Of a DNA stretch of 64,000 bases, positions 1-15,001 are shown in pieces. The notes below the pieces were generated by a model. That model was not told where the DNA came from and made no database searches. It saw only the letters and a program-made list of their open reading frames with translations. The stretch is from Longimicrobiales bacterium. Its GTDB lineage: Bacteria > Gemmatimonadota > Gemmatimonadetes > Longimicrobiales > Gaopeijiaceae. A program made the translations under genes and the position numbers. How positions within the stretch are numbered: the stretch's first letter is position 1; each line of letters starts with the position of its first letter. Location of the stretch: contig CBDBCF010000001.1 in the NCBI GenBank assembly GCA_965202985.1, positions 2,368,001 to 2,432,000 on the forward strand. Direction: 5' to 3'.

Positions 1-977
1 AGCGGCCTGGCCCCGTAGCGCTCTCCTGCGGCAAGCCCCGGCTCGGGGAAGTCGCGGTACGGCAATCCCGCCACGGTCACCCTTGGCCTGCGCCCGCGCT
101 CCGTCCATGCGGAAGCGAGTTCGACCGGCGCCTTGGCCGCGCCGTCCGCCGAGGTCACGTGGACGGCCTCGTCCAGAACCGCCAGGCGCGCACCGCCCTC
201 GTCGTCGTAGTAGAGGAAGGAGCGGAGCCCGGCCGGCGTCGGCCCGTTCAATCCCGCCGCGGCCGCCAGTTCGGCCAGCGGATAGGTGCGCTGGTAGACG
301 CCGGGTCGGCGCGGGAAGAGGCCCAGCACGCCCGAGCCGTCGGGGTAGGGCACGACGACCGTTCTCGCGTCGGCGCTTCCGTCGTCGGCGCCCCCGTCGT
401 CGGCGCTCGACCCGTCCGCATCCCCGCCGCCGGTCATGTGCACCAGCTCGTCGCGGGTTCCGCCGATCCCCGCCTTCTGGGCCAGGGAGACCTTCGACCG
501 CGCGAAGGCGAACACTTCGTCGGGGCCGCCGTCGGGGGAGCCCACGCGAATCCGATCTCCCGGCGCCACGGCAACCGAGCCCAGCACGACATGGTCGGCG
601 CCCCTCCACCGGCGAGGCGTTCGCACCACAGCTACGGCGGACGCCGCCGTCGGATCCGTCGCCCGCACCACGATGCCGCCCGCCGAGTCGCGCATCAGGA
701 CCGCAACCGGATCGTTCCCGGCGCCCGGCAGGTAGTAGTCCGCCCGGTCGCGGTCGCCCGACACCTCGGCGACGACGCCTCCGCTGCGCGGCTGGAAGCG
801 CTGGCCCAGCAGCTTGACTTGGTACGACGCCAGCCTGTCCCCATGAAACCAGATCGACCCGCCCGCCACGACGCCGATCGCCAGGACCCAGAGACAGGCG
901 CGGCGACCCGGCGACGACCGGCGTGCCATCCACCCCGAACCGACGAGTGCGATCAGGCCCAGAAGCAGGACGCTCAT
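1..977 (-). CDS. Membrane-anchored hypothetical protein (partial, runs off window start); last visible gene of the GTPase operon
   Basis: Not in the ORF track because it has no stop in the window. ATG at 977 overlaps the upstream TGA (974-976). Reads MSVLLLGLIALVGSGWMARRSSPGRRACLWVLAIGVVAGGSIWFHG..., with two N-terminal hydrophobic segments, and stays open to position 1. Confidence 0.75.
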   Translation of the reverse strand, partial: MSVLLLGLIALVGSGWMARRSSPGRRACLWVLAIGVVAGGSIWFHGDRLASYQVKLLGQRFQPRSGGVVAEVSGDRDRADYYLPGAGNDPVAVLMRDSAGGIVVRATDPTAASAVAVVRTPRRWRGADHVVLGSVAVAPGDRIRVGSPDGGPDEVFAFARSKVSLAQKAGIGGTRDELVHMTGGGDADGSSADDGGADDGSADARTVVVPYPDGSGVLGLFPRRPGVYQRTYPLAELAAAAGLNGPTPAGLRSFLYYDDEGGARLAVLDEAVHVTSADGAAKAPVELASAWTERGRRPRVTVAGLPYRDFPEPGLAAGERYGARP

Positions 978-2995
978 GGACTTGGGACCTCGTCTGCGTC
1001 CGCCCGGCGGCTGCTTCGGCGCTCGGCGGCCTCGTCGGCGTAGAAGTCGGTTCGCGTGAGCAGGAAGAACCGCCACCAGTTCACGAAGACCAGCACGGCC
1101 AGCGACATCCCGGCGGCGGCGCAGATCAGCAACGCCGCCACGGCCGCTACGGGCTGGTTCCTGGCGTGGTGGCGAAGTCGCCGACTCTGGGCTCGGACGC
1201 CGCTCTGGGACCGCACCAGCGGGGCCATGTCTTCGGCGCGGTACACGTCGGAGGGTCGAAGGCCCGCGTGGGCGACGGCGGACTCGGCCGTCCGCACGTA
1301 GTCCGCCGCGTCGCGAGCGCGGATGCTGGAGAAGGCGGCCCCGCGTCGGAGCTGTTCGACCAGCTGCTCGGCGATGTCGTGGAAGACGGCCTCCGTCCAC
1401 TCCGATGCGTAGGTGCACGCGGCGGTCGGATCGATCCCGGCGTTCAGGTCGGCGGGAACCGAGCCCCCGCAGAAGGCGCGGGCGTGATTTCGGGCCTCGT
1501 CCAGGATCGCGTCGACCTGCACGTCGGGGCCGCCCGAGAGTCCGGCGCTTCTTCCGCCCCCGGCCTCCAGCTGGCGCCGGCGCCGCTCGTAGCGCGCGAC
1601 CAGTCCGCCGTGAAGGAACGCTCCCGACCTCTCCAGCCAGCGCTCCCGAACCGCCTTCGCCACGGGTTCGGCGGCTCGCTCGGGACACCGGGCCTCCAGG
1701 CGCGCGAAGGTGTGAACGGCCACGGCCGCCCAGGCGCTGTCGGCGGTCGCCCGTCCATCTTGTCGCAGTCCGGCGGCGACTCCCGCCAGCATCTCGCACT
1801 GCTCTTCCTCGTCCAGCCCTAGTGCGCGCGTCCACTCCGGCTCGTCGAGCACGCGCCACGCCAGGACGGCCCTGCTCGCGGCCAGCCGAGGGTCGGGACG
1901 CAACCGGTTGTAGTGGTAGACCCGTTGCAGGTTGGACGCCGCCCAAAGGACATGCTCGGGGACCCGGCCCCTTTGCCGTCGGGGCTGGGCGGCGGCCTGC
2001 TGGGCGTACCGGAGAAGGGGCGCCAGCGGGTCGCCCGGGTCCATGTCGAAGCGGTGGCGAGCGACCTCTCCGGCCAGACGCTCGGGATCGCGGAAGTCGG
2101 GCGTCGCCATGTAGGCCGACACGAGCCCGGCGTAGGCGTCCAGCGAGGTGAGGCCGGGTTGCGCGGTACCGGAGCACGAGAGAGCGCCGGGCGGCAGGTC
2201 GGTTCGACGGTGGTGCCCCCCTGGGCGGGCGCCGCGAGAGCCGTCCAGCGCGTAGCTGACCGCGTTGAGGGCGCGGCGGAAGTGGGCGACGGCGTCGACC
2301 GGCCGACCTCGACCGTGAGCCGCCATGCCCGCTAGGTAGCGAGCGTGGAACGCCAGGATCACCAGCGTGCGCGGGGCGCCCCCGGCACGAGCCGCGCGAG
2401 CGGCATCGGACGCGTGCACCGTGGGCAAAGGCCCGCCCTGGGGCTGCACCAGCGGGATCGATTCCAATGCGCGGGCCGCGCCGGCCCAGTCCCCGCCGGC
2501 GCTCGCGGCTCGGGCCAAGGCGTAGAGCGCGATCGGTCGGGCGGCGGCCGACAGCCCCGGAATCCGGTTCTCGAGCGCCTCGACCGCGTTCGCCAACCCG
2601 GTGCGACCGTCGGCGCTCGCGGCCTGCTCGGCTTGGCGGATCGCCCTGTCCAGGTCCCGTGCCTCGTCCGCCCCGGTGCCGGGCCATCCGGCCGCGCACA
2701 GGAACGGAGGCAGCGGAGGAGCCAGCAGATCGTCGGCGCGACGGGCCATTCCGCCGCCCTCCAGCACCGCGAATCGCCACGACGCGTCCAGGGCGCGGTC
2801 CAGCCGAGGGGGCTGGTCCAGGAACCGGTACGCGCGGACCAGCGTGGTCTCCGGCGACGACGACCCGAGCAGCGACCGGCCCACCCAGGCGCACGCGACC
2901 AGCACCGCGGCGCACGCCCCCGCAAGCACCAGGCGCGCCCTACTGCCGGGCGCGGTCCGGCGGGCGCCGGCGCCGAAGAGCGTCGTCCAGCCCAC
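974..2995 (-). CDS. Hypothetical helical-repeat (TPR-like) protein with N- and C-terminal transmembrane segments
   Basis: 3' part of ORF 974..4780, GTG at 2995 just after the GTPase stop. Hydrophobic LVLAGACAAVLVACAWVG and VAAVAALLICAAAGMSLAVLVFVNWW; TPR-like ALYALARAASAGGDWAGAARALE and ARYLAGMAAHGRGRPVDAVAHFRRAL. Confidence 0.7.
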   Translation of the reverse strand: MGWTTLFGAGARRTAPGSRARLVLAGACAAVLVACAWVGRSLLGSSSPETTLVRAYRFLDQPPRLDRALDASWRFAVLEGGGMARRADDLLAPPLPPFLCAAGWPGTGADEARDLDRAIRQAEQAASADGRTGLANAVEALENRIPGLSAAARPIALYALARAASAGGDWAGAARALESIPLVQPQGGPLPTVHASDAARAARAGGAPRTLVILAFHARYLAGMAAHGRGRPVDAVAHFRRALNAVSYALDGSRGARPGGHHRRTDLPPGALSCSGTAQPGLTSLDAYAGLVSAYMATPDFRDPERLAGEVARHRFDMDPGDPLAPLLRYAQQAAAQPRRQRGRVPEHVLWAASNLQRVYHYNRLRPDPRLAASRAVLAWRVLDEPEWTRALGLDEEEQCEMLAGVAAGLRQDGRATADSAWAAVAVHTFARLEARCPERAAEPVAKAVRERWLERSGAFLHGGLVARYERRRRQLEAGGGRSAGLSGGPDVQVDAILDEARNHARAFCGGSVPADLNAGIDPTAACTYASEWTEAVFHDIAEQLVEQLRRGAAFSSIRARDAADYVRTAESAVAHAGLRPSDVYRAEDMAPLVRSQSGVRAQSRRLRHHARNQPVAAVAALLICAAAGMSLAVLVFVNWWRFFLLTRTDFYADEAAERRSSRRADADEVPSP

Positions 2996-2997
2996 TT

Positions 2998-4413
2998 TCA
3001 GCCCCTGTCCCCGTCGGGTCGCGGGGCGGCGCGGCCCAGGGCGTTCCATGCGTCGGGTCGGAGACGGCGGTCCAGCCGGATCGCCGCGGCCGAAGACAGC
3101 CCCGGCACCCTCCACGGATGGCGGGCCAAGAAGTCCACCACGCCTTCGCCCCCGATCAAGGAGTCCGTGCCCGGTTCCGCGTCGGCGGCAGCGTCCAGCG
3201 GGTCCGGGTCGGGGCTTCGGTCCTCCAGCGCTTGGCAGAACGACCACTTGAAGTACCGCACTTCGCGCTCCAGAAACTTCAGGAAGTCGGGAAAGTGGGC
3301 GGCGGCGGTCAGCAGGGGCTCCGACTCGCCCGGTCGCAGTCCGGCGGGCGTCCGATGTCCCAGCCGGGGCAGGTCGGGCGTGTGCAGGCGGTCCCGGGTG
3401 CGTCCGACGTACAGGTCGGCCTTGGAAAGCACGACCGCGACCGGCCGGTCGTACTTGGTGGGCGCCCGCTTGAAGGCGTCGTCCACCTGATTCCGCGTGG
3501 GAGGCCGGTTCCCTTTCAAGTCCAGCCGTCCCTTGCGCCGGAGCCGTTCGGCGAACCGCGCCACGACCGCGTACTTGAGCAGCATCTTGTGAGCGTTCAC
3601 CATGCGCTCGGCGGCCGCCTCCATCTCCCTGCGCTCGCCGGCGGGGGGCACGCGGCGGCGGGGGTCGTCTCCCGGGTTCCAGCCCGACCAGACCACGGGC
3701 AGCGCCATGAGGAACGCGATTCCGTCCAGCCGCTGGAGGACGGGCCAGAGGAAGGCCCCCATCAGCTCCGGCAGCTCCCGCTCGTAGTCCCCCAGCACCT
3801 GATAGTCCTCGCCGGCCATGTCCACCAGGACGTGATGGTCGCGCCTGCCGGGCAGGTAGTAGATGTTGACGTCCCCCCGCTCGGTCTTGTTGTAGTGCAG
3901 GTCGGCGCCCGGCCTGTCCGCGGCCCGCTCCCGGAGGCGGTCGGCGAGCGTCGTCTTGCCGTGGCGCGGCAGCCCCGCGATGCCGAAGAGCTTGCCCCGC
4001 CGCCGCCGACGGTGCTCCGCGAGCGCCTCGACGGCGGTGCCTGCAGCCGACCTGTCGGCGGACTGCACCCTCTTGCTGTGCAGGCCCGGCGAGGGTCGCG
4101 GGGGCGGGATCGCCGAGTCGTCCGGTTCTTGGCGTGTGCGCTCCTCGGGCGGGTCGTTGAGCGCGTCGCTGGGTGGCGGAGCGGAACGGCTCGGGGCTTC
4201 GGGCGTCGAGTCCGCCGGGGGGCGGGCGTCGTCCGATGGCGAATCCGCCGATGCAGGGGTGTCGTCCGGGGCCGAGGCGTCGTCCGCGGCCGAGGCGTCG
4301 TCCGGGGCCGAAGCGTCGTCCGCGGCCGAACCGCGGCCCGCCCTTTCCCGCATGACCTCCTTCCGCAGCCGCTTCAGGGTCTGCGCGACTTGTCTGCTGC
4401 GCTTCTCGCTCAT
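2998..4413 (-). CDS. TRAFAC-class P-loop GTPase (double-GTPase/DO-GTPase-like) with low-complexity N-terminus
   Basis: G1 GLPRHGKTT, G3 DMAGE, G4 SKAD in ORF 2998..6501. ATG at 4413 overlaps the upstream TGA (4410-4412); an alternative ATG lies at 4449. Confidence 0.8.
   Translation of the reverse strand: MSEKRSRQVAQTLKRLRKEVMRERAGRGSAADDASAPDDASAADDASAPDDTPASADSPSDDARPPADSTPEAPSRSAPPPSDALNDPPEERTRQEPDDSAIPPPRPSPGLHSKRVQSADRSAAGTAVEALAEHRRRRRGKLFGIAGLPRHGKTTLADRLRERAADRPGADLHYNKTERGDVNIYYLPGRRDHHVLVDMAGEDYQVLGDYERELPELMGAFLWPVLQRLDGIAFLMALPVVWSGWNPGDDPRRRVPPAGERREMEAAAERMVNAHKMLLKYAVVARFAERLRRKGRLDLKGNRPPTRNQVDDAFKRAPTKYDRPVAVVLSKADLYVGRTRDRLHTPDLPRLGHRTPAGLRPGESEPLLTAAAHFPDFLKFLEREVRYFKWSFCQALEDRSPDPDPLDAAADAEPGTDSLIGGEGVVDFLARHPWRVPGLSSAAAIRLDRRLRPDAWNALGRAAPRPDGDRG
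4257..4330. repeat. 18-bp tandem repeat x4 encoding SAADDA/SAPDDA in the GTPase N-terminus
   Basis: gtcgtccggggccgaggc / gtcgtccgcggccgaggc / gtcgtccggggccgaagc / gtcgtccgcggccgaa. Confidence 0.85.
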
Positions 4414-6494
4414 TCGGAGGACCTTTCCCTGCTCCCACTCCAACGCCATCTCGTCTTCCGGGCGGGGCGCCGCGCCGACGAGGAACGGCGGGCCGGGGCG
4501 GAACGCCGATGAAGGAGGGCCGACCGGAGCGCCAGGAACACCGAGATCGGCGGTCCCGGCTCGTGTTCCATGAGGCGCCGGGCCAGGGAGGCGGCTCCAG
4601 GGCGGCCCGCCGCCGCCAAGGAGGCCAGGGCCGTCTTGCCCCAGATGCGCTGCTCGACCCACGCCAAGCGCTGGAGAACGCCGGCGTCCAAGGAGCGCGA
4701 CTGATCCGAGCCCAACGCCGCTTCGCCCGGAGCCGTGGTCGCTTCGCTTGCGCCGACCTCGGCCCGGCGCGCCGCCGCAAGCCCGAGCCAGACTCTTGCC
4801 AACAAGGTCTGCCAAGCCGGATGCGCCCTCCCGGGCCAAGCCAGGAAGACGCGAATCAGGTCCCGAGCCAAGCGGGAGCTCATCGGGTCCCGGAGGCCGG
4901 CGGCGTCCACCATCTTTGGCACGTCGGCGACCCGACCAAGCGGCTCGAGGAGCCCGACAACGATGCCGGCCAGCTTCGCGACCGTCTCGTCCCCGTCTTG
5001 CTCCCGCGTCCGCCCGACCGCGGCCCCCAGCTCCCCGGCGTCGACGCCCGCGTGGGCCAGCGCCCGGAGCCCCTCGACCAGGAGCACCAACCCCTCGGCC
5101 CGACGGCGCGTCCCCGTGCCCGCCAAGACGGCCAGCCGCGCCGCCCAGGAGCCGGGAACCTTGCCGCCGAACCCGCGAACCAGTCCGTCGAAGAAGCGCC
5201 GGTTGGTTGTCAGCAAGGGCTCGCGGAGAACGGCGTCGATCCACTCGGGCGGTCGGCCCGGAGGCCGCGCAGCCAAGTCGGCCGCGGCCAGCACGCCGAG
5301 CGCTCGCCACCGCTCCGCGCCCCGGGACTCGAGACGCGCGCGGTCCAGGAGGTCGACGGCCCCAAGCCGCGCCGGCGCCCAATGCACGACGTAGGGCTCG
5401 CTTGCCGCCCGAAAGAGAGAAAGGCCCCGCGCGTCGATCCGAGCGCTTGCCCTGCCGTACTCGGCCGAGTCGCCCAGGACCAGAGCGGCCCACGTCTCCA
5501 AGGGACCGCGTTTCGTGGACGCCGCTCCCGTTCCCCCAGTCCCCGTTCCCGTTCCCCGCCCCGGAACGGCGGCCCCGGGCACCAGGCACGGAGTCGGATG
5601 GCGTCCCCGCAGATCGAGCGTCGAGTAGAAGACGCGGACCCTGTCGACCAACGGCAGGGACAGCCACGCCAACCGCATTACGACGCAGGCCTCCCGGCGC
5701 GTCCCAACCACTTGGACGGCGCCGTCGCGGGAGACCTTCGCAGCCGGGGCGTCGGGAGTCGGGGCGCGGTCCGGAGCGCGGGCCGGGTCCGAGGTCGCGT
5801 CCACCTTCCGATACACGTCCACCAGCGCTTCGCGGACGGCCCGAACTCCACCAGCGGCGACGGCGGCTCGAGCCAGGCGGTCCACCTCGCGCAACCGGGC
5901 GCGCCTGATCCGGTCTCGATTCGGCCTGTACTCGGGCGTGGCCAACGGTTCCAGGCCCGCCGGCGCGGAGCGGCGAAGCTGCGCGAACCAAGCCGCCTCC
6001 GCGGGCGCTCCGGACGCCATCCCCGCCGCCGACAAGTCCAGGTGAAGCCCTTGGGGGAAACCGTCGATCTCGCGAAAGAGGGATTGGTCGAAGAGGAGCG
6101 TGTGGGTCGCGACGCGCGGACGGCGGGCGCGGGCTTCCTCGCGAGCGGGCCGAACGACGCCGGAGAGGCAGAAGCCAAGGCGACCGTCCAGCGGCAGGAA
6201 CGCCTCCGGCAGCCCCAGCGTTCCCATGGCGACAGCGTCCGTCTTCGGGTCGTCCGCCCTCGGGCCGCGGCCGCCCTCCCGAACAAGCACTGGCGGCTCG
6301 GCAGACTCCGCAAGCTCGGCGCCCCACGGCACCCGTTCTTCCAGCCTCCCCGCCCGAACCCGGTCCAGACCCCCGGTCCAGCCACAGGTCTCCCACGCCG
6401 GGTTGTAGGCGGAGGCGTTGGATGCGAACAGATGGCGATCCAGGCGGCGGTTGCGTCCCGCTGGATCGTGCTCGTCCGGTCCTGGCGCGGTCAC
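4410..6494 (-). CDS. GTPase-associated protein 1 (GAP1-N/GAP1-M-like) hypothetical protein
   Basis: GTG at 6494 overlaps TGA 6491-6493. N-terminal ...ARRPRVATHTLLF and middle LAWLSLPLVDRVRVFYST resemble GAP1 N and M signatures. Directly upstream of the GTPase. Family recognised by eye only. Confidence 0.55.
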   Translation of the reverse strand: MTAPGPDEHDPAGRNRRLDRHLFASNASAYNPAWETCGWTGGLDRVRAGRLEERVPWGAELAESAEPPVLVREGGRGPRADDPKTDAVAMGTLGLPEAFLPLDGRLGFCLSGVVRPAREEARARRPRVATHTLLFDQSLFREIDGFPQGLHLDLSAAGMASGAPAEAAWFAQLRRSAPAGLEPLATPEYRPNRDRIRRARLREVDRLARAAVAAGGVRAVREALVDVYRKVDATSDPARAPDRAPTPDAPAAKVSRDGAVQVVGTRREACVVMRLAWLSLPLVDRVRVFYSTLDLRGRHPTPCLVPGAAVPGRGTGTGTGGTGAASTKRGPLETWAALVLGDSAEYGRASARIDARGLSLFRAASEPYVVHWAPARLGAVDLLDRARLESRGAERWRALGVLAAADLAARPPGRPPEWIDAVLREPLLTTNRRFFDGLVRGFGGKVPGSWAARLAVLAGTGTRRRAEGLVLLVEGLRALAHAGVDAGELGAAVGRTREQDGDETVAKLAGIVVGLLEPLGRVADVPKMVDAAGLRDPMSSRLARDLIRVFLAWPGRAHPAWQTLLARVWLGLAAARRAEVGASEATTAPGEAALGSDQSRSLDAGVLQRLAWVEQRIWGKTALASLAAAGRPGAASLARRLMEHEPGPPISVFLALRSALLHRRSAPARRSSSARRPARKTRWRWSGSRERSSE

Positions 6495-7123
6495 GGGACA
6501 TACTCCGGGGGGATTTCGACGCCTGAACTGTCCGGCCCGGTGTCCAAGGCGCTGTCCGTTTCGAGGGCTTGCGAACTGTCGGCGGCGAGGCCCGGAGAGT
6601 CGGGCAGGCCCAGCGAATCGGGCAGGCTCAGCGAGTCGGGCAGGACGGCCCGCACGGTGTCCACGAGCGGCGCGACGGAGTCTCCGAAGACGCTTGGAGC
6701 GCCGGCCCCGCCGCCGGCCGCCCCGGCGGGCCACGGTCCCCACTGTCTTCCCGCCCACCACCCGGCGCCCACGAGCGCGACGGCGGTCAGGGCACCCACG
6801 ACGGCGGCAGCCCATGTCGGCCACGGCCTTGACCCGGCCTTGCCTCGGGTAGCGGCGTCGCCCTTGGCGCCGGCGTTGCCCTTGGCGCCCGCGTCGCCTT
6901 TGGATGCCGAAACCGGACCGTCGATTCCGAGGGGGGCCGCGCTCGCCATCTCCTCCCGCACCACCCGCCGCACGATCTCCTCCCAGTCGGCGGGCGCGGG
7001 CGCCGCGCTTCGAACCGCTTCCGCGACGGCCTCTCCGGCGTCTTCGCGGATCGCCTTCAGAGTCTGGCGGTAGAGCGCCGTCATCTCCTGTTCGCGCTCG
7101 TAGGTCTCCTGTTCGCGCTTCAT
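6491..7123 (-). CDS. Single-pass membrane hypothetical protein with repeat-rich linkers
   Basis: ATG 7123 overlaps TGA 7120-7122. Helical N-terminus MKREQETYEREQEM, KGDAG/KGNAG repeats, TM WAAAVVGALTAVALVGAGWWAG, LPDS repeats. Confidence 0.7.
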   Translation of the reverse strand: MKREQETYEREQEMTALYRQTLKAIREDAGEAVAEAVRSAAPAPADWEEIVRRVVREEMASAAPLGIDGPVSASKGDAGAKGNAGAKGDAATRGKAGSRPWPTWAAAVVGALTAVALVGAGWWAGRQWGPWPAGAAGGGAGAPSVFGDSVAPLVDTVRAVLPDSLSLPDSLGLPDSPGLAADSSQALETDSALDTGPDSSGVEIPPEYVP

Positions 7124-7548
7124 GGTTCCAGTCGCTCCGGCGAGAGGACGAAGGAGAACGACGATCCGCGGGGCAGGACGGCATCCAAGTCCGCAACCCC
7201 GAGCTGTTCCAGAAGCGCGGCCCGAGCGGACTGGTTGTTCTCCAGGTGATAAAGGCGCAGCACGTCGCGGGCGGTCATGTCCCAGGGCGCCGCCACGGTG
7301 GCCGTGTCCCGGCCCGCCATGAACGTCGCGGCCAACTCGGAGGCGTCGTTGAACGAGACGACCGAGGCCAAGGGGCTTGTCTCCGTGCTCACCATCGCCG
7401 CTTCCCGCAGCGCCGGTCCGAACGCCCGCCCAAGCAGATAGGCGACGCCGCACGCCGCAACCGCCGCCGCGCACCGGCCCGCCCGTACGAGCCGGGTCTT
7501 CAACGAGGGCCAAGCGTCAGTGCGCCGGGCGTCCTTCGTTTCCCTCAT
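7120..7548 (-). CDS. Small membrane-anchored hypothetical protein, first gene of operon
   Basis: ATG 7548 preceded by GGAGG. Hydrophobic CAAAVAACGVAYLLG, then a compact C-terminal domain. Confidence 0.65.
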   Translation of the reverse strand: MRETKDARRTDAWPSLKTRLVRAGRCAAAVAACGVAYLLGRAFGPALREAAMVSTETSPLASVVSFNDASELAATFMAGRDTATVAAPWDMTARDVLRLYHLENNQSARAALLEQLGVADLDAVLPRGSSFSFVLSPERLEP

Positions 7549-13071: not shown

Positions 13072-13302
13072 GTGGAGCAGCGAGCAAACTCCCCGGATCT
13101 TCCCATCGGCACCCGTGTCGTCTACCGGGACGACCCCGGGATGCTTGGCCAAGTTATTGGTGGTCCTCGCATCCGAAACAATCGAAAAAAGTACCGCGTT
13201 CGTTGGGATCGCGGCACGGAGGGTTGGTACCCGGCCCGTGACCGTCAAGTCCACGCGGGCGCTTGGGATCGGGAGGTAGCACATGCAGACTACGAGCTAT
13301 AG
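13072..13302 (+). CDS. Small SH3/Tudor-like hypothetical protein (possibly a gene remnant)
   Basis: IGTRVVYRDDPGMLGQVI...KYRVRWD beta-rich pattern; overlaps the start of the DUF262 gene. Confidence 0.4.
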   Translation: MEQRANSPDLPIGTRVVYRDDPGMLGQVIGGPRIRNNRKKYRVRWDRGTEGWYPARDRQVHAGAWDREVAHADYEL

Positions 13303-15001
13303 CCTTCGTAGCCTGCTAGATGCTGTGCAGGCTGGTCGGCTTACGATACCGAGATTCCAGCGGCAGTTTATCTGGAAGGAAGCAGATGTGCGACGCCTTG
13401 TGGACTCGATAGCCCGCTCCTATCCAGTGGGCTCGCTGCTGCTTCTCGAAAAGAATCCAGCACTACAGCTCGCGTCGCGCAGAATTGAGGCGGAGCTTCG
13501 CGAAGCGGACGACTTGGACCCGGCCGATCCTTCGGCTGGGATAGATGCGGACTCCTATATTCTTGACGGGCAGCAGCGAATCACGTCCCTCACTCGCGTA
13601 TTCATGAACGCAGGCCTGAGGGTGGCGTACTATTTTGACTTGAAGGCCATTCTTGAAGAATTCGATTCGGAGTCACTTGACTGGATCAGAACGAGGCGTC
13701 GCAAGACCCGACCTGATCGAATCGAGGGCAACAGGCTATTGCGTGCCGATCTAGTGCTTGACCAGAAGAAGGCCAGTATATATGTCAATGAATACATTGA
13801 GGATTCACCCGATTTTGCCGATTGCAATCGTGACCGCAAGTGGGAAGCAATCGCAGAAATCAATGGTATCTTTGAGACCATAAGAAGATATAAGATCCCT
13901 GTTGTGACACTTGAGCAGGACCGCGGCATCGAAGCGATCTGCCGGGTGTTTGAGACGATCAACAGCACGGGCACTAGACTTAGCACATTTGATCTTGCAG
14001 TTGCTAGATTCTTCCCGAATCCAGACTTGCGAGAACTATGGGAACAGACACTCGTAGACTATCCTATACTGCAGCAATTTGGGGTCAACGGCGAAAGAGT
14101 ACTGCAGGTATTGTACTTGGTGATTGCTACCCGAGATGGTCGGTCTGCTGAACTGTCACGAGGGACACTGCTGGCATTGCCGCCGGACCGATTAGCGAAG
14201 AACTGGGAGTGGTCGGTAAGTATGCTCGCGAGCACATACGAGTGGGCGAGGGCGCAGGGAGCACGTCCCAAATCGTCTGGAGGCCCAGGCACTTTGCCCA
14301 ATACCATGATTCTCGTCGCCATCGCCGCCGTTAAGGCTTTGCACAGACCAAACGAGGAAGTATTTGCTGATCTTGATTTTATGCGTAGATGGTATTTTAG
14401 TCAGATTCTGCAAAAAGGTTATTCGTCTCGCGCATCGAACTATCAGATAGGCTTGTTTTTCAATGCGTTGAAGATGTACGTTCGCGAGGGAATTGTTCCA
14501 CCAGTTCGAGACGTTGCCGAATTGAGTGTGGACGATATCCGGAGACTCAGGCCAGCAGACGTAAGGTACAAGGTACTGCAGAACATATTTGCCATGTCGG
14601 TACGACAGGACTTGTTGACCGGTGATATGATTACTTCCGAATCCGATCTCGATGATCACCATATCTATCCATATAACGCGGTCAAGAAGCATGGACTTGA
14701 CAAGAATGTATTGAATTCGATCTGTAATCGCATTCCGATACTTGCTAGGACAAACCGTTCACTTGGAGAAGGATATCCTCACGAATACTTTGGCAGTTTA
14801 GCCGAGAGGGCACGGGCGAGTGGGACGATAGACGGCCTAAGGCGACGACTTGGAGATTGCATGATACCGGGGGACCCGAAGGAACCTGATTGGCCCAATC
14901 GCTTCTTGATCGAGAATGTTGATGATTTTATGCGTGAGCGATCCGAATTGATTCGACATCGGGTGAAAGAAATAATCGGCACGGCGTTGCAAGGGGACTA
15001 A
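13283..15001 (+). CDS. DUF262 (ParB-like) plus HNH domain protein, GmrSD-like modification-dependent restriction nuclease
   Basis: IPRFQRQFIW, LDGQQRITS, VFETINSTGTRL; C-terminal DDHHIYP...N...N; GGGAGG RBS; visibly lower GC than flanks. Confidence 0.85.
   Translation: MQTTSYSLRSLLDAVQAGRLTIPRFQRQFIWKEADVRRLVDSIARSYPVGSLLLLEKNPALQLASRRIEAELREADDLDPADPSAGIDADSYILDGQQRITSLTRVFMNAGLRVAYYFDLKAILEEFDSESLDWIRTRRRKTRPDRIEGNRLLRADLVLDQKKASIYVNEYIEDSPDFADCNRDRKWEAIAEINGIFETIRRYKIPVVTLEQDRGIEAICRVFETINSTGTRLSTFDLAVARFFPNPDLRELWEQTLVDYPILQQFGVNGERVLQVLYLVIATRDGRSAELSRGTLLALPPDRLAKNWEWSVSMLASTYEWARAQGARPKSSGGPGTLPNTMILVAIAAVKALHRPNEEVFADLDFMRRWYFSQILQKGYSSRASNYQIGLFFNALKMYVREGIVPPVRDVAELSVDDIRRLRPADVRYKVLQNIFAMSVRQDLLTGDMITSESDLDDHHIYPYNAVKKHGLDKNVLNSICNRIPILARTNRSLGEGYPHEYFGSLAERARASGTIDGLRRRLGDCMIPGDPKEPDWPNRFLIENVDDFMRERSELIRHRVKEIIGTALQGD

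Follow-up and report, generated by a model that had tools for sequence, protein, structure and literature searches.

A seven-gene operon of a Longimicrobiales bacterium linking a DO-GTPase-like protein and a GAP1-like partner to a predicted SEDS-class B PBP pair

What does a GTPase control when its gene lies in the middle of a tightly coupled chain of genes for membrane proteins? This question is raised by one end of a 64,000-nucleotide stretch from a Longimicrobiales bacterium (Gemmatimonadota; assembly GCA_965202985.1, contig CBDBCF010000001.1, positions 2,368,001 to 2,432,000), referred to here as the window. The original prediction described its first 7548 nucleotides as a six-gene operon with a TRAFAC GTPase, a GAP1-like partner and four membrane proteins of unknown function, and placed it among the conflict systems of the double-GTPase/GAP1 class. 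We find that the operon has seven genes, and that the last two encode a predicted divergent SEDS (FtsW/RodA-like) protein and a predicted class B penicillin-binding protein (PBP). On balance, the operon is fairly probably a GTPase-controlled accessory peptidoglycan synthase that stands apart from the growth and division machinery. The operon is real, conserved and apparently undescribed.

The seven genes and their conservation

Open reading frame (ORF) analysis reproduced the minus-strand starts at 7548, 7123, 6494, 4413, 2995 and 977. Overlaps of 4 bp (ATGA or GTGA) join all of these genes except g4 and g5, which lie 2 bp apart, as first described for each junction. The count of six genes has to be corrected. 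The gene at 977 encodes 1046 amino acids and extends, in the genome sequence, 2164 bases beyond the left edge of the window, and a seventh gene (896 amino acids) is coupled behind it by another ATGA overlap. The expected continuation of the operon was indeed found, with 4.85 kb past the window edge that hold the rest of g6 and all of g7. The genes are as follows.

g1, 7120..7548, minus strand, 142 amino acids: N-terminal membrane anchor and a small, possibly LysM-like domain
g2, 6491..7123, minus strand, 210 amino acids: charged helical segment, one transmembrane (TM) segment (103-121) and a variable tail
g3, 4410..6494, minus strand, 694 amino acids: soluble partner, GAP1-like, with a longin N-domain predicted at 13-195, followed by an alpha/beta part and a C-terminus of helical repeats
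g4, 2998..4413, minus strand, 471 amino acids: TRAFAC-type, DO-GTPase-like P-loop protein
g5, 974..2995, minus strand, 673 amino acids: helical, TPR-like protein with anchors at both ends, a predicted periplasmic scaffold
g6, 1..977 in the window (first third; whole gene G000:C1:2365837-2368977), minus strand, 1046 amino acids: predicted divergent SEDS protein
g7, G000:C1:2363150-2365840 (wholly outside the window), minus strand, 896 amino acids: predicted membrane-anchored class B PBP-like transpeptidase

In all seven genes, the GC content of third codon positions (0.83-0.89) exceeds that of second positions (0.54-0.61). The ratio of nonsynonymous to synonymous substitution rates (dN/dS) was 0.19-0.54 in 14 of 14 pairwise tests of the seven genes against two relatives. 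This codon bias and these ratios identify g1 to g7 as real genes, and purifying selection acts on all of them.

GTDB genomes were scanned with a profile of the GTPase, and 226 pattern matches led to nine loci. The named relatives are Gemmatimonadota, including several Longimicrobiales. Synteny, which had been proposed as a check, is conserved, with the gene order kept in all nine loci as far as the contigs extend. g4, g5 and g6 are adjacent in every locus. g1 and g3 are present in eight, the ninth contig beginning at g4, and g7 is present in all seven loci that reach it, the other two contigs stopping earlier. g2 was matched in four of eight loci, and two further ORFs at the same position can be aligned. 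One genome (G059) retains g4 to g7 at 25-33% identity.

The predicted SEDS-PBP pair

The identification of g7 is based on its active-site motifs. S387xxK390, S447xN449 and K761TG are present in 11 of 11 sequences, down to approximately 28% identity. The g7 profile retrieved 51 sequences from the PDB, all of them PBPs by name (best E 4.5e-6); shallower queries gave E values of 0.13-1.4 only. From these motifs and matches, g7 is likely a class B PBP-like transpeptidase.

In g6, two TM segments are followed by a beta-rich predicted periplasmic domain and then by the divergent SEDS domain. The predicted homology to SEDS proteins is seen through family members. A search found 61 long g6 homologues, two of which are named Acidobacteriota or Thermoanaerobaculia. 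Two of 17 scanned homologues match PF01098 above the cut-off and two more below it, and the two that pass reach E<=1e-55 with the profile of the g6 family. Comparison of g6 with FtsW by hhalign gives 60% (E 9e-5). In FtsW and RodA, the putative catalytic residue is described as the Asp of LPEAHTD, D297 and D262, respectively (bioRxiv 10.64898/2026.02.13.705525). Among 73 aligned SEDS segments of the g6 family (13 from the loci and 60 of the 61 search matches, some overlapping), the column of E931 is acidic in all 73, with Glu in 61 and Asp in 12. Eleven of them read D-F as in HTDF (LRDFA like AHTDFI); E931 was brought into register with HTDF by hhalign and visual inspection, allowing for a single inserted residue. 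Arg660 and DxG740-742 are also invariant in the family and lie at SEDS-like places. Short imperfect repeats of about 10-15 residues occupy residues 780-820 of g6, past the window edge, where the SEDS domain forms a loop, and loci L012 and L019 carry unrelated insertions in other loops.

Several results weigh against the assignment of this pair. Neither g6 (PF01098 included) nor g7 itself has a Pfam or NCBIfam match, and in these two collections none of the seven operon proteins reaches a cut-off. The SEDS motifs are much altered in g6, in which QPSE.AK and PLP..SYGG are not kept, and most family members (61/73) carry Glu instead of Asp. A g6 profile built from 13 sequences retrieved no SEDS chain from the PDB and gave only 6% against FtsW. 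The AlphaFold2 (AF2) model of g6 is poor, with a mean confidence (pLDDT) of 57 and values below 50 across much of the loop region; on this model, Foldseek (nothing at E<=0.001) and VIA did not list a SEDS protein. Furthermore, g7 is broken by two frameshifts at L017:16446-18929, which may be real or an assembly error.

The divergence of g6 from FtsW and RodA leaves room for another product. g6 might be a SEDS-fold glycosyltransferase for a different lipid-linked glycan, or a non-catalytic scaffold, with g7 acting on peptides only and no new peptidoglycan strands being made. The family's own invariant motif (TGKNxYLLGxDS), the frequent Glu at the Asp position and the large extra periplasmic domain fit this explanation. 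It is nevertheless distinctly unlikely, as g6 is constantly paired with an intact gene of the DD-transpeptidase type and its invariant acid, Arg660 and DxG740-742 are at SEDS-like places.

SEDS proteins are reported to act with a cognate class B PBP (PMC8078798). Since the genome also keeps separate FtsW-FtsI and RodA-PBP2 loci elsewhere, assigned by context and motifs, g6 and g7 form a third SEDS-PBP pair. They resemble RodA-PBP2, FtsW-FtsI and SpoVE-SpoVD in their coupled genes, the catalytic acid column, the SxxK, SxN and KTG motifs and the N-terminal anchor. Unlike these pairs, g6 and g7 fall below the family cut-offs, the SEDS domain is fused to approximately 560 extra residues, and Glu replaces Asp. 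The genes also lack mreBCD or dcw context, are linked to a GTPase module and, judged by their distribution, are non-essential. The operon is envelope-associated, as had been proposed. This pair is the output module that had been missed: the original prediction counted g6 among the membrane proteins of unknown function and did not include g7, whereas neither of the two is of unknown function.

The GTPase, its partner and the distant two-GTPase loci

A search of 1.84 billion representatives with the GTPase gave 107 matches, 80 of which were aligned with g4 (n=81), those left out being mostly short fragments. The GTPase motifs G1, G3 and G4, originally called intact, are indeed so (G147-K153, D198-E202 and S330-D333), and G2 lies at T177. 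G147, G152, K153, G201 and D333 are present in 81 of 81 members, E202 in 80, and the G2 threonine is nearly invariant. The lysine of G4 is retained in 47/81 only, and GTP specificity is therefore an inference.

A glutamate in Walker B and the frequent presence of zinc ribbons define the DO-GTPases (PMC7159879). The g4 family has this glutamate (DxxGE, E202), and an N-terminal zinc ribbon is found in 40/81 members and is absent from g4. PF19993 (DO-GTPase2) is matched weakly, at E<=0.01, by 10 of the 81. In hhalign, the g4-family profile reaches 97% (E 9e-11) and 90% with the pair of GTPases encoded at a true GAP1-N1 locus. No curated model passes for g4, and the Pfam DO-GTPase1 and DO-GTPase2 models are not reached above cut-off by g4 or by 47 close members. 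g4 is thus predicted to be a switch-type TRAFAC protein related to the DO-GTPases.

The partner g3 has an AF2 model with a pLDDT of 75.7. Its top structural match in VIA is an archaeal longin (Z 8.0, rmsd 3.7, 131 aligned residues), and residues 14-367 match DENND1A (Z 5.2, rmsd 5.0, 216 aligned). Nine of 50 VIA rows cover the N-terminal part, and we take all nine to be longin, roadblock or DENN-related proteins. Z values of this size may reflect a common arrangement. Kinship of g3 to GAP1 appears through intermediates. Aligned with its positional counterparts in the distant loci described below, g3 gives 95% in hhalign over residues 121-362. Of the five counterparts, four match GAP1-M (E 3e-4 to 7e-3), one GAP1-N1 and one GAP1-N2, all sub-threshold. 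Some results argue the other way. g3 itself has no Pfam GAP1 match, a hidden Markov model of the distant GAP1-like proteins failed to retrieve g3 in hmmsearch, and the distant GAP1-like group reaches 0.9% with true GAP1-N1. A direct assignment of g3 to GAP1-N1 was rejected, as hhalign gave 0.3% with two true GAP1-N1 proteins. Taken together, kinship to GAP1 is quite likely, and the GAP1 call, originally made by eye, holds in this indirect form and not as a direct match. Prediction of a complex between g4 (125-462) and g3 (14-375) scored 0.13, compared with a mark of 0.32.

The g3 protein can be compared with longin/DENN regulators (DENND1A-Rab35, FLCN-FNIP2 and C9orf72-SMCR8) and with TagF of the type VI secretion system. 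It shares with them a predicted longin N-domain and has a partial match to the guanine nucleotide exchange factor domain of DENND1A. However, the Z values are only 5.2-8.0 with identities of 3-12%, a fold in common does not establish a function, and the GTPase that g3 accompanies is of the DO type and is neither a Rab nor a Rag protein. The modelled longin/DENN-like fold suggests a biochemical role for GAP1; no literature linking GAP1 to longin/DENN proteins or to TagF was found.

TagF also appears in the Foldseek results for g3 (Acinetobacter TagF; E 0.092, probability 0.87, TM-score by target 0.37), which contain nothing at E<=0.001, and the Atlas returned unnamed clusters only (0.92, low recognition). 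Weak FHA-like segments are found in g6 (71-148; 8%) and g7 (181-237; 5%). These matches could point to a wall-remodelling accessory of a secretion or appendage machine, with a TagF-like protein and FHA-like domains controlling it as in type VI secretion. In FHA domains, the GR and SxxH residues bind the phosphorylated ligand. Both segments lack these residues and are predicted to be periplasmic, and the seven operon proteins, which were the only ones searched, match no secretion-system model in Pfam or NCBIfam. Such an accessory is therefore very unlikely.

Scanning metagenomes with 12 distant GTPases as queries yielded eight more loci. In five of them, a g1-like gene, a zinc-ribbon GTPase (GTPase A) and a first GAP1-like gene are followed by the counterparts of g3 and g4. 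GTPase A exceeds the DO-GTPase2 cut-off in two of these five. A SEDS gene lies downstream in 5/8 loci and a PBP gene in 4/8; two contigs stop at the GTPase and one inside the SEDS gene. In the tree of GTPases (23 rows, midpoint-rooted, with long-branch warnings), g4 clusters with the downstream GTPase B of the two-GTPase loci with a support of 97/94. GTPase A and the second partner were not found in this genome or in the nine related loci, and the simplest reading would be a loss of GTPase A in Gemmatimonadota. Thus, the proposed membership of the double-GTPase/GAP1 class is retained in part: g4 is DO-GTPase-like, a second GTPase is lacking, and the GAP1 partner is recognised through intermediates only. 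No version smaller than the seven-gene form was seen here, which suggests that a single GTPase with a single partner is sufficient.

Three of the metagenome loci deviate. At L072:1847-6129, the GTPase gene and a weak g5-like gene are followed by an unrelated membrane gene, and no SEDS or PBP match was found in this locus. This speaks against a dedicated wall output: the link between GTPase and SEDS is not absolute, and a GTPase module of this type may take another output. L068:5429-11149 is another single-GTPase variant, with a sulfatase gene between the GAP1-like gene and the GTPase gene and no second GTPase seen upstream. At L070:5363-6987, the first GAP1-like gene is split into two ORFs, which may be real or an assembly error.

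The remaining proteins are smaller or helical. TM segments were called by hydropathy with a threshold of 1.6. The anchors originally described are confirmed in g2, g5 (20-38 and 619-637) and g6, which has 12 segments; g7 has one at 5-23, and g3 and g4 have zero. The g1 segment, at 1.55, falls under the threshold, and its homologues are above it in 10 of 10 cases (1.78-2.95). g1 has 11 aligned homologues, five from the distant two-GTPase loci, and no match in Pfam or the PDB. Its possible LysM-like resemblance is a weak lead: hhalign gives 13% (E 0.002) across the entire domain, and the Atlas relates g1 at 0.85 to a cluster in which LysM accounts for 20%. g2 occupies the slot of the second GTPase and GAP1-like gene of the distant loci; the idea that it is the leftover tail of a second GAP1-like protein was rejected, as sequence homology was not detected (0.2%). 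For g5, described as TPR-like and anchored at both ends, both anchors stand and the TPR match is weak (PF07719 E 0.0019, below the cut-off). A g5 homologue follows the GTPase gene in nine of nine genome loci and in six of eight metagenome loci, one of them weak. Judged by charged loops and the positive-inside rule, the periplasmic side would hold the beta-rich g6 domain (45-455), the bodies of g5 and g7 and the small g1 domain.

Conflict systems, distribution and a proposed mechanism

Do these genes form a conflict system? The operon shares with the DO-GTPase/GAP1 systems, as far as these are described in PMC7159879, a TRAFAC GTPase with Glu after Walker B and zinc ribbons in half of its family, a neighbouring gene for a three-part partner that is probably GAP1-like, membrane components and a patchy spread. 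In contrast to them, it has a single GTPase with the GAP1-like gene upstream; two GTPase paralogues occur in 38% of such systems and are not obligatory (PMC7159879). It also lacks genes for GASH, FNIII, tubulin, vWA, Hsp70 or a kinase, as well as a variable effector, and ends in a fixed SEDS-PBP output that is unmentioned in the main text of that paper. No GASH or FNIII Pfam match was found among the seven operon proteins and 30 proteins of the distant loci. The same genes recur in nine of nine genome loci, as far as the contigs extend, and the same output genes in the distant loci. Given that no GASH or FNIII component and no variable effector was seen, we do not file the operon under the GAP1-N1 or GAP1-N2 systems.

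The classical systems themselves are rare in this phylum. GAP1-N2 was found in 0/301 genomes and GAP1-N1 in 2/301, neither being this genome. The two GAP1-N1 systems are at L028:3439-9949 (G043) and L029:5906-8732 (G255); the former combines GAP1 and two GTPases with a calcineurin-like and a helical gene.

Another comparison is with the FtsZl1/vWA/GTPase operons of Makarova and Koonin 2010 (PMC2875224). As described there, these operons are likewise envelope-related and contain a diverged P-loop GTPase that has a TxKD-like motif and, in some cases, a cysteine-rich domain. Unlike them, the present operon has no gene for a tubulin-like, vWA, kinase or OmpA protein, and its seven proteins match neither FtsZ-like 1 nor vWA in Pfam and NCBIfam. 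Hence, the further components that had been anticipated (second GTPase, vWA, tubulin-like protein, kinase) are all missing from the seven genes. The terms FtsW and penicillin have 0 occurrences in the text of PMC2875224. RodA, penicillin and transpeptidase have 0 occurrences in the main text of PMC7159879 and two supplements, and FtsW has 0 in a term search of that paper and the same supplements; its gene-neighbourhood source data might list such loci. No published description of a GTPase/GAP1-like module combined with a SEDS-PBP pair was found in a search that covered few subscription journals.

The spread of the operon is patchy. Strong matches occur in 5/401 Gemmatimonadota genomes and in 5/61 relatives. 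The 401 genomes include the unpublished G116, G234, G212 and G037, of which G037 is also in the scan of 61 relatives; no other claim uses them. In all, 241 of the 401 genomes matched, and 236 were set aside (best E 4.5e-8 or weaker). The matches listed for these span the front half of the model only, mostly its proline-rich linker, and L036 and L038 cover the P-loop part.

Two candidate defence loci lie nearby. At 13283-15001 on the plus strand of the window, a GmrSD_N (DUF262-type) protein (E 1e-31) is encoded in a low-GC stretch (0.50-0.56 compared with about 0.72) and is likely a recently acquired defence gene. To the left of the window, by 9-19 kb (plus strand of G000:C1, about 2349000-2359100; L001:3-9087), a 2255-amino-acid helicase with a MrfA-type zinc-binding domain is followed by a UvrD-like helicase, possibly as a defence island.

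These observations bear on a defence role of the type described by Kaur et al. 2020. The SEDS-PBP pair would then be a captured decoy or a physical-barrier effector, released by a GTPase threshold upon infection. The DO-GTPase/GAP1 kinship of g4 and g3 favours this role. So do the patchy spread and the positions of the GmrSD-type gene (about 5.7 kb upstream of the operon) and the helicase-UvrD cluster (about 4 kb downstream). However, the gene set is fixed, and with no variable effector seen, the classical conflict-system reading, as originally proposed, is weak. The catalytic residues are kept, unlike those of captured modules, which are described as typically inactive (PMC7159879). Four of the nine related loci (L011, L012, L013 and L015) have the operon's upstream neighbours in common, pointing to a settled chromosomal site, and no plasmid match for the operon was found among 72,556 records. 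A conflict system of this kind is thus unlikely.

For the accessory peptidoglycan synthase, the following mechanism can be proposed. The seven products would form one membrane complex, which g1 may hold on the wall. Longin/DENN proteins set the nucleotide state of eukaryotic GTPases, and g3 may likewise set that of g4. The g4 switch and its regulator g3 would then turn on the private g6/g7 pair, leading to local peptidoglycan synthesis. g2 and the double-anchored g5 might pass the signal across the membrane, by analogy in the position of FtsQLB or MreCD. E931 would serve as the catalytic base for lipid II polymerisation by g6, and g7 would cross-link the strands via S387. The purpose, which is the weakest step, may be to patch or thicken the wall conditionally, when the cell is attacked or its envelope is damaged.

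A bolder version, which we regard as rather doubtful, is that a eukaryote-style GTPase with a longin/DENN-fold exchange factor switches on a dedicated peptidoglycan synthase to patch or wall off the site of attack, giving a defence by wall building instead of cell killing. In this version, GAP1 proteins in general would be prokaryotic DENN-like regulators.

Known SEDS-PBP pairs are activated by cytoskeleton-linked activators. If the reading of the operon as a GTPase-controlled synthase is true, a wall synthase pair hard-wired to a GTPase module is a new way of controlling wall synthesis. DO-GTPase/GAP1 systems would also gain an output that can be assayed in the tube, as lipid II polymerisation with and without GTP, and the seven-gene form would be easier to rebuild.

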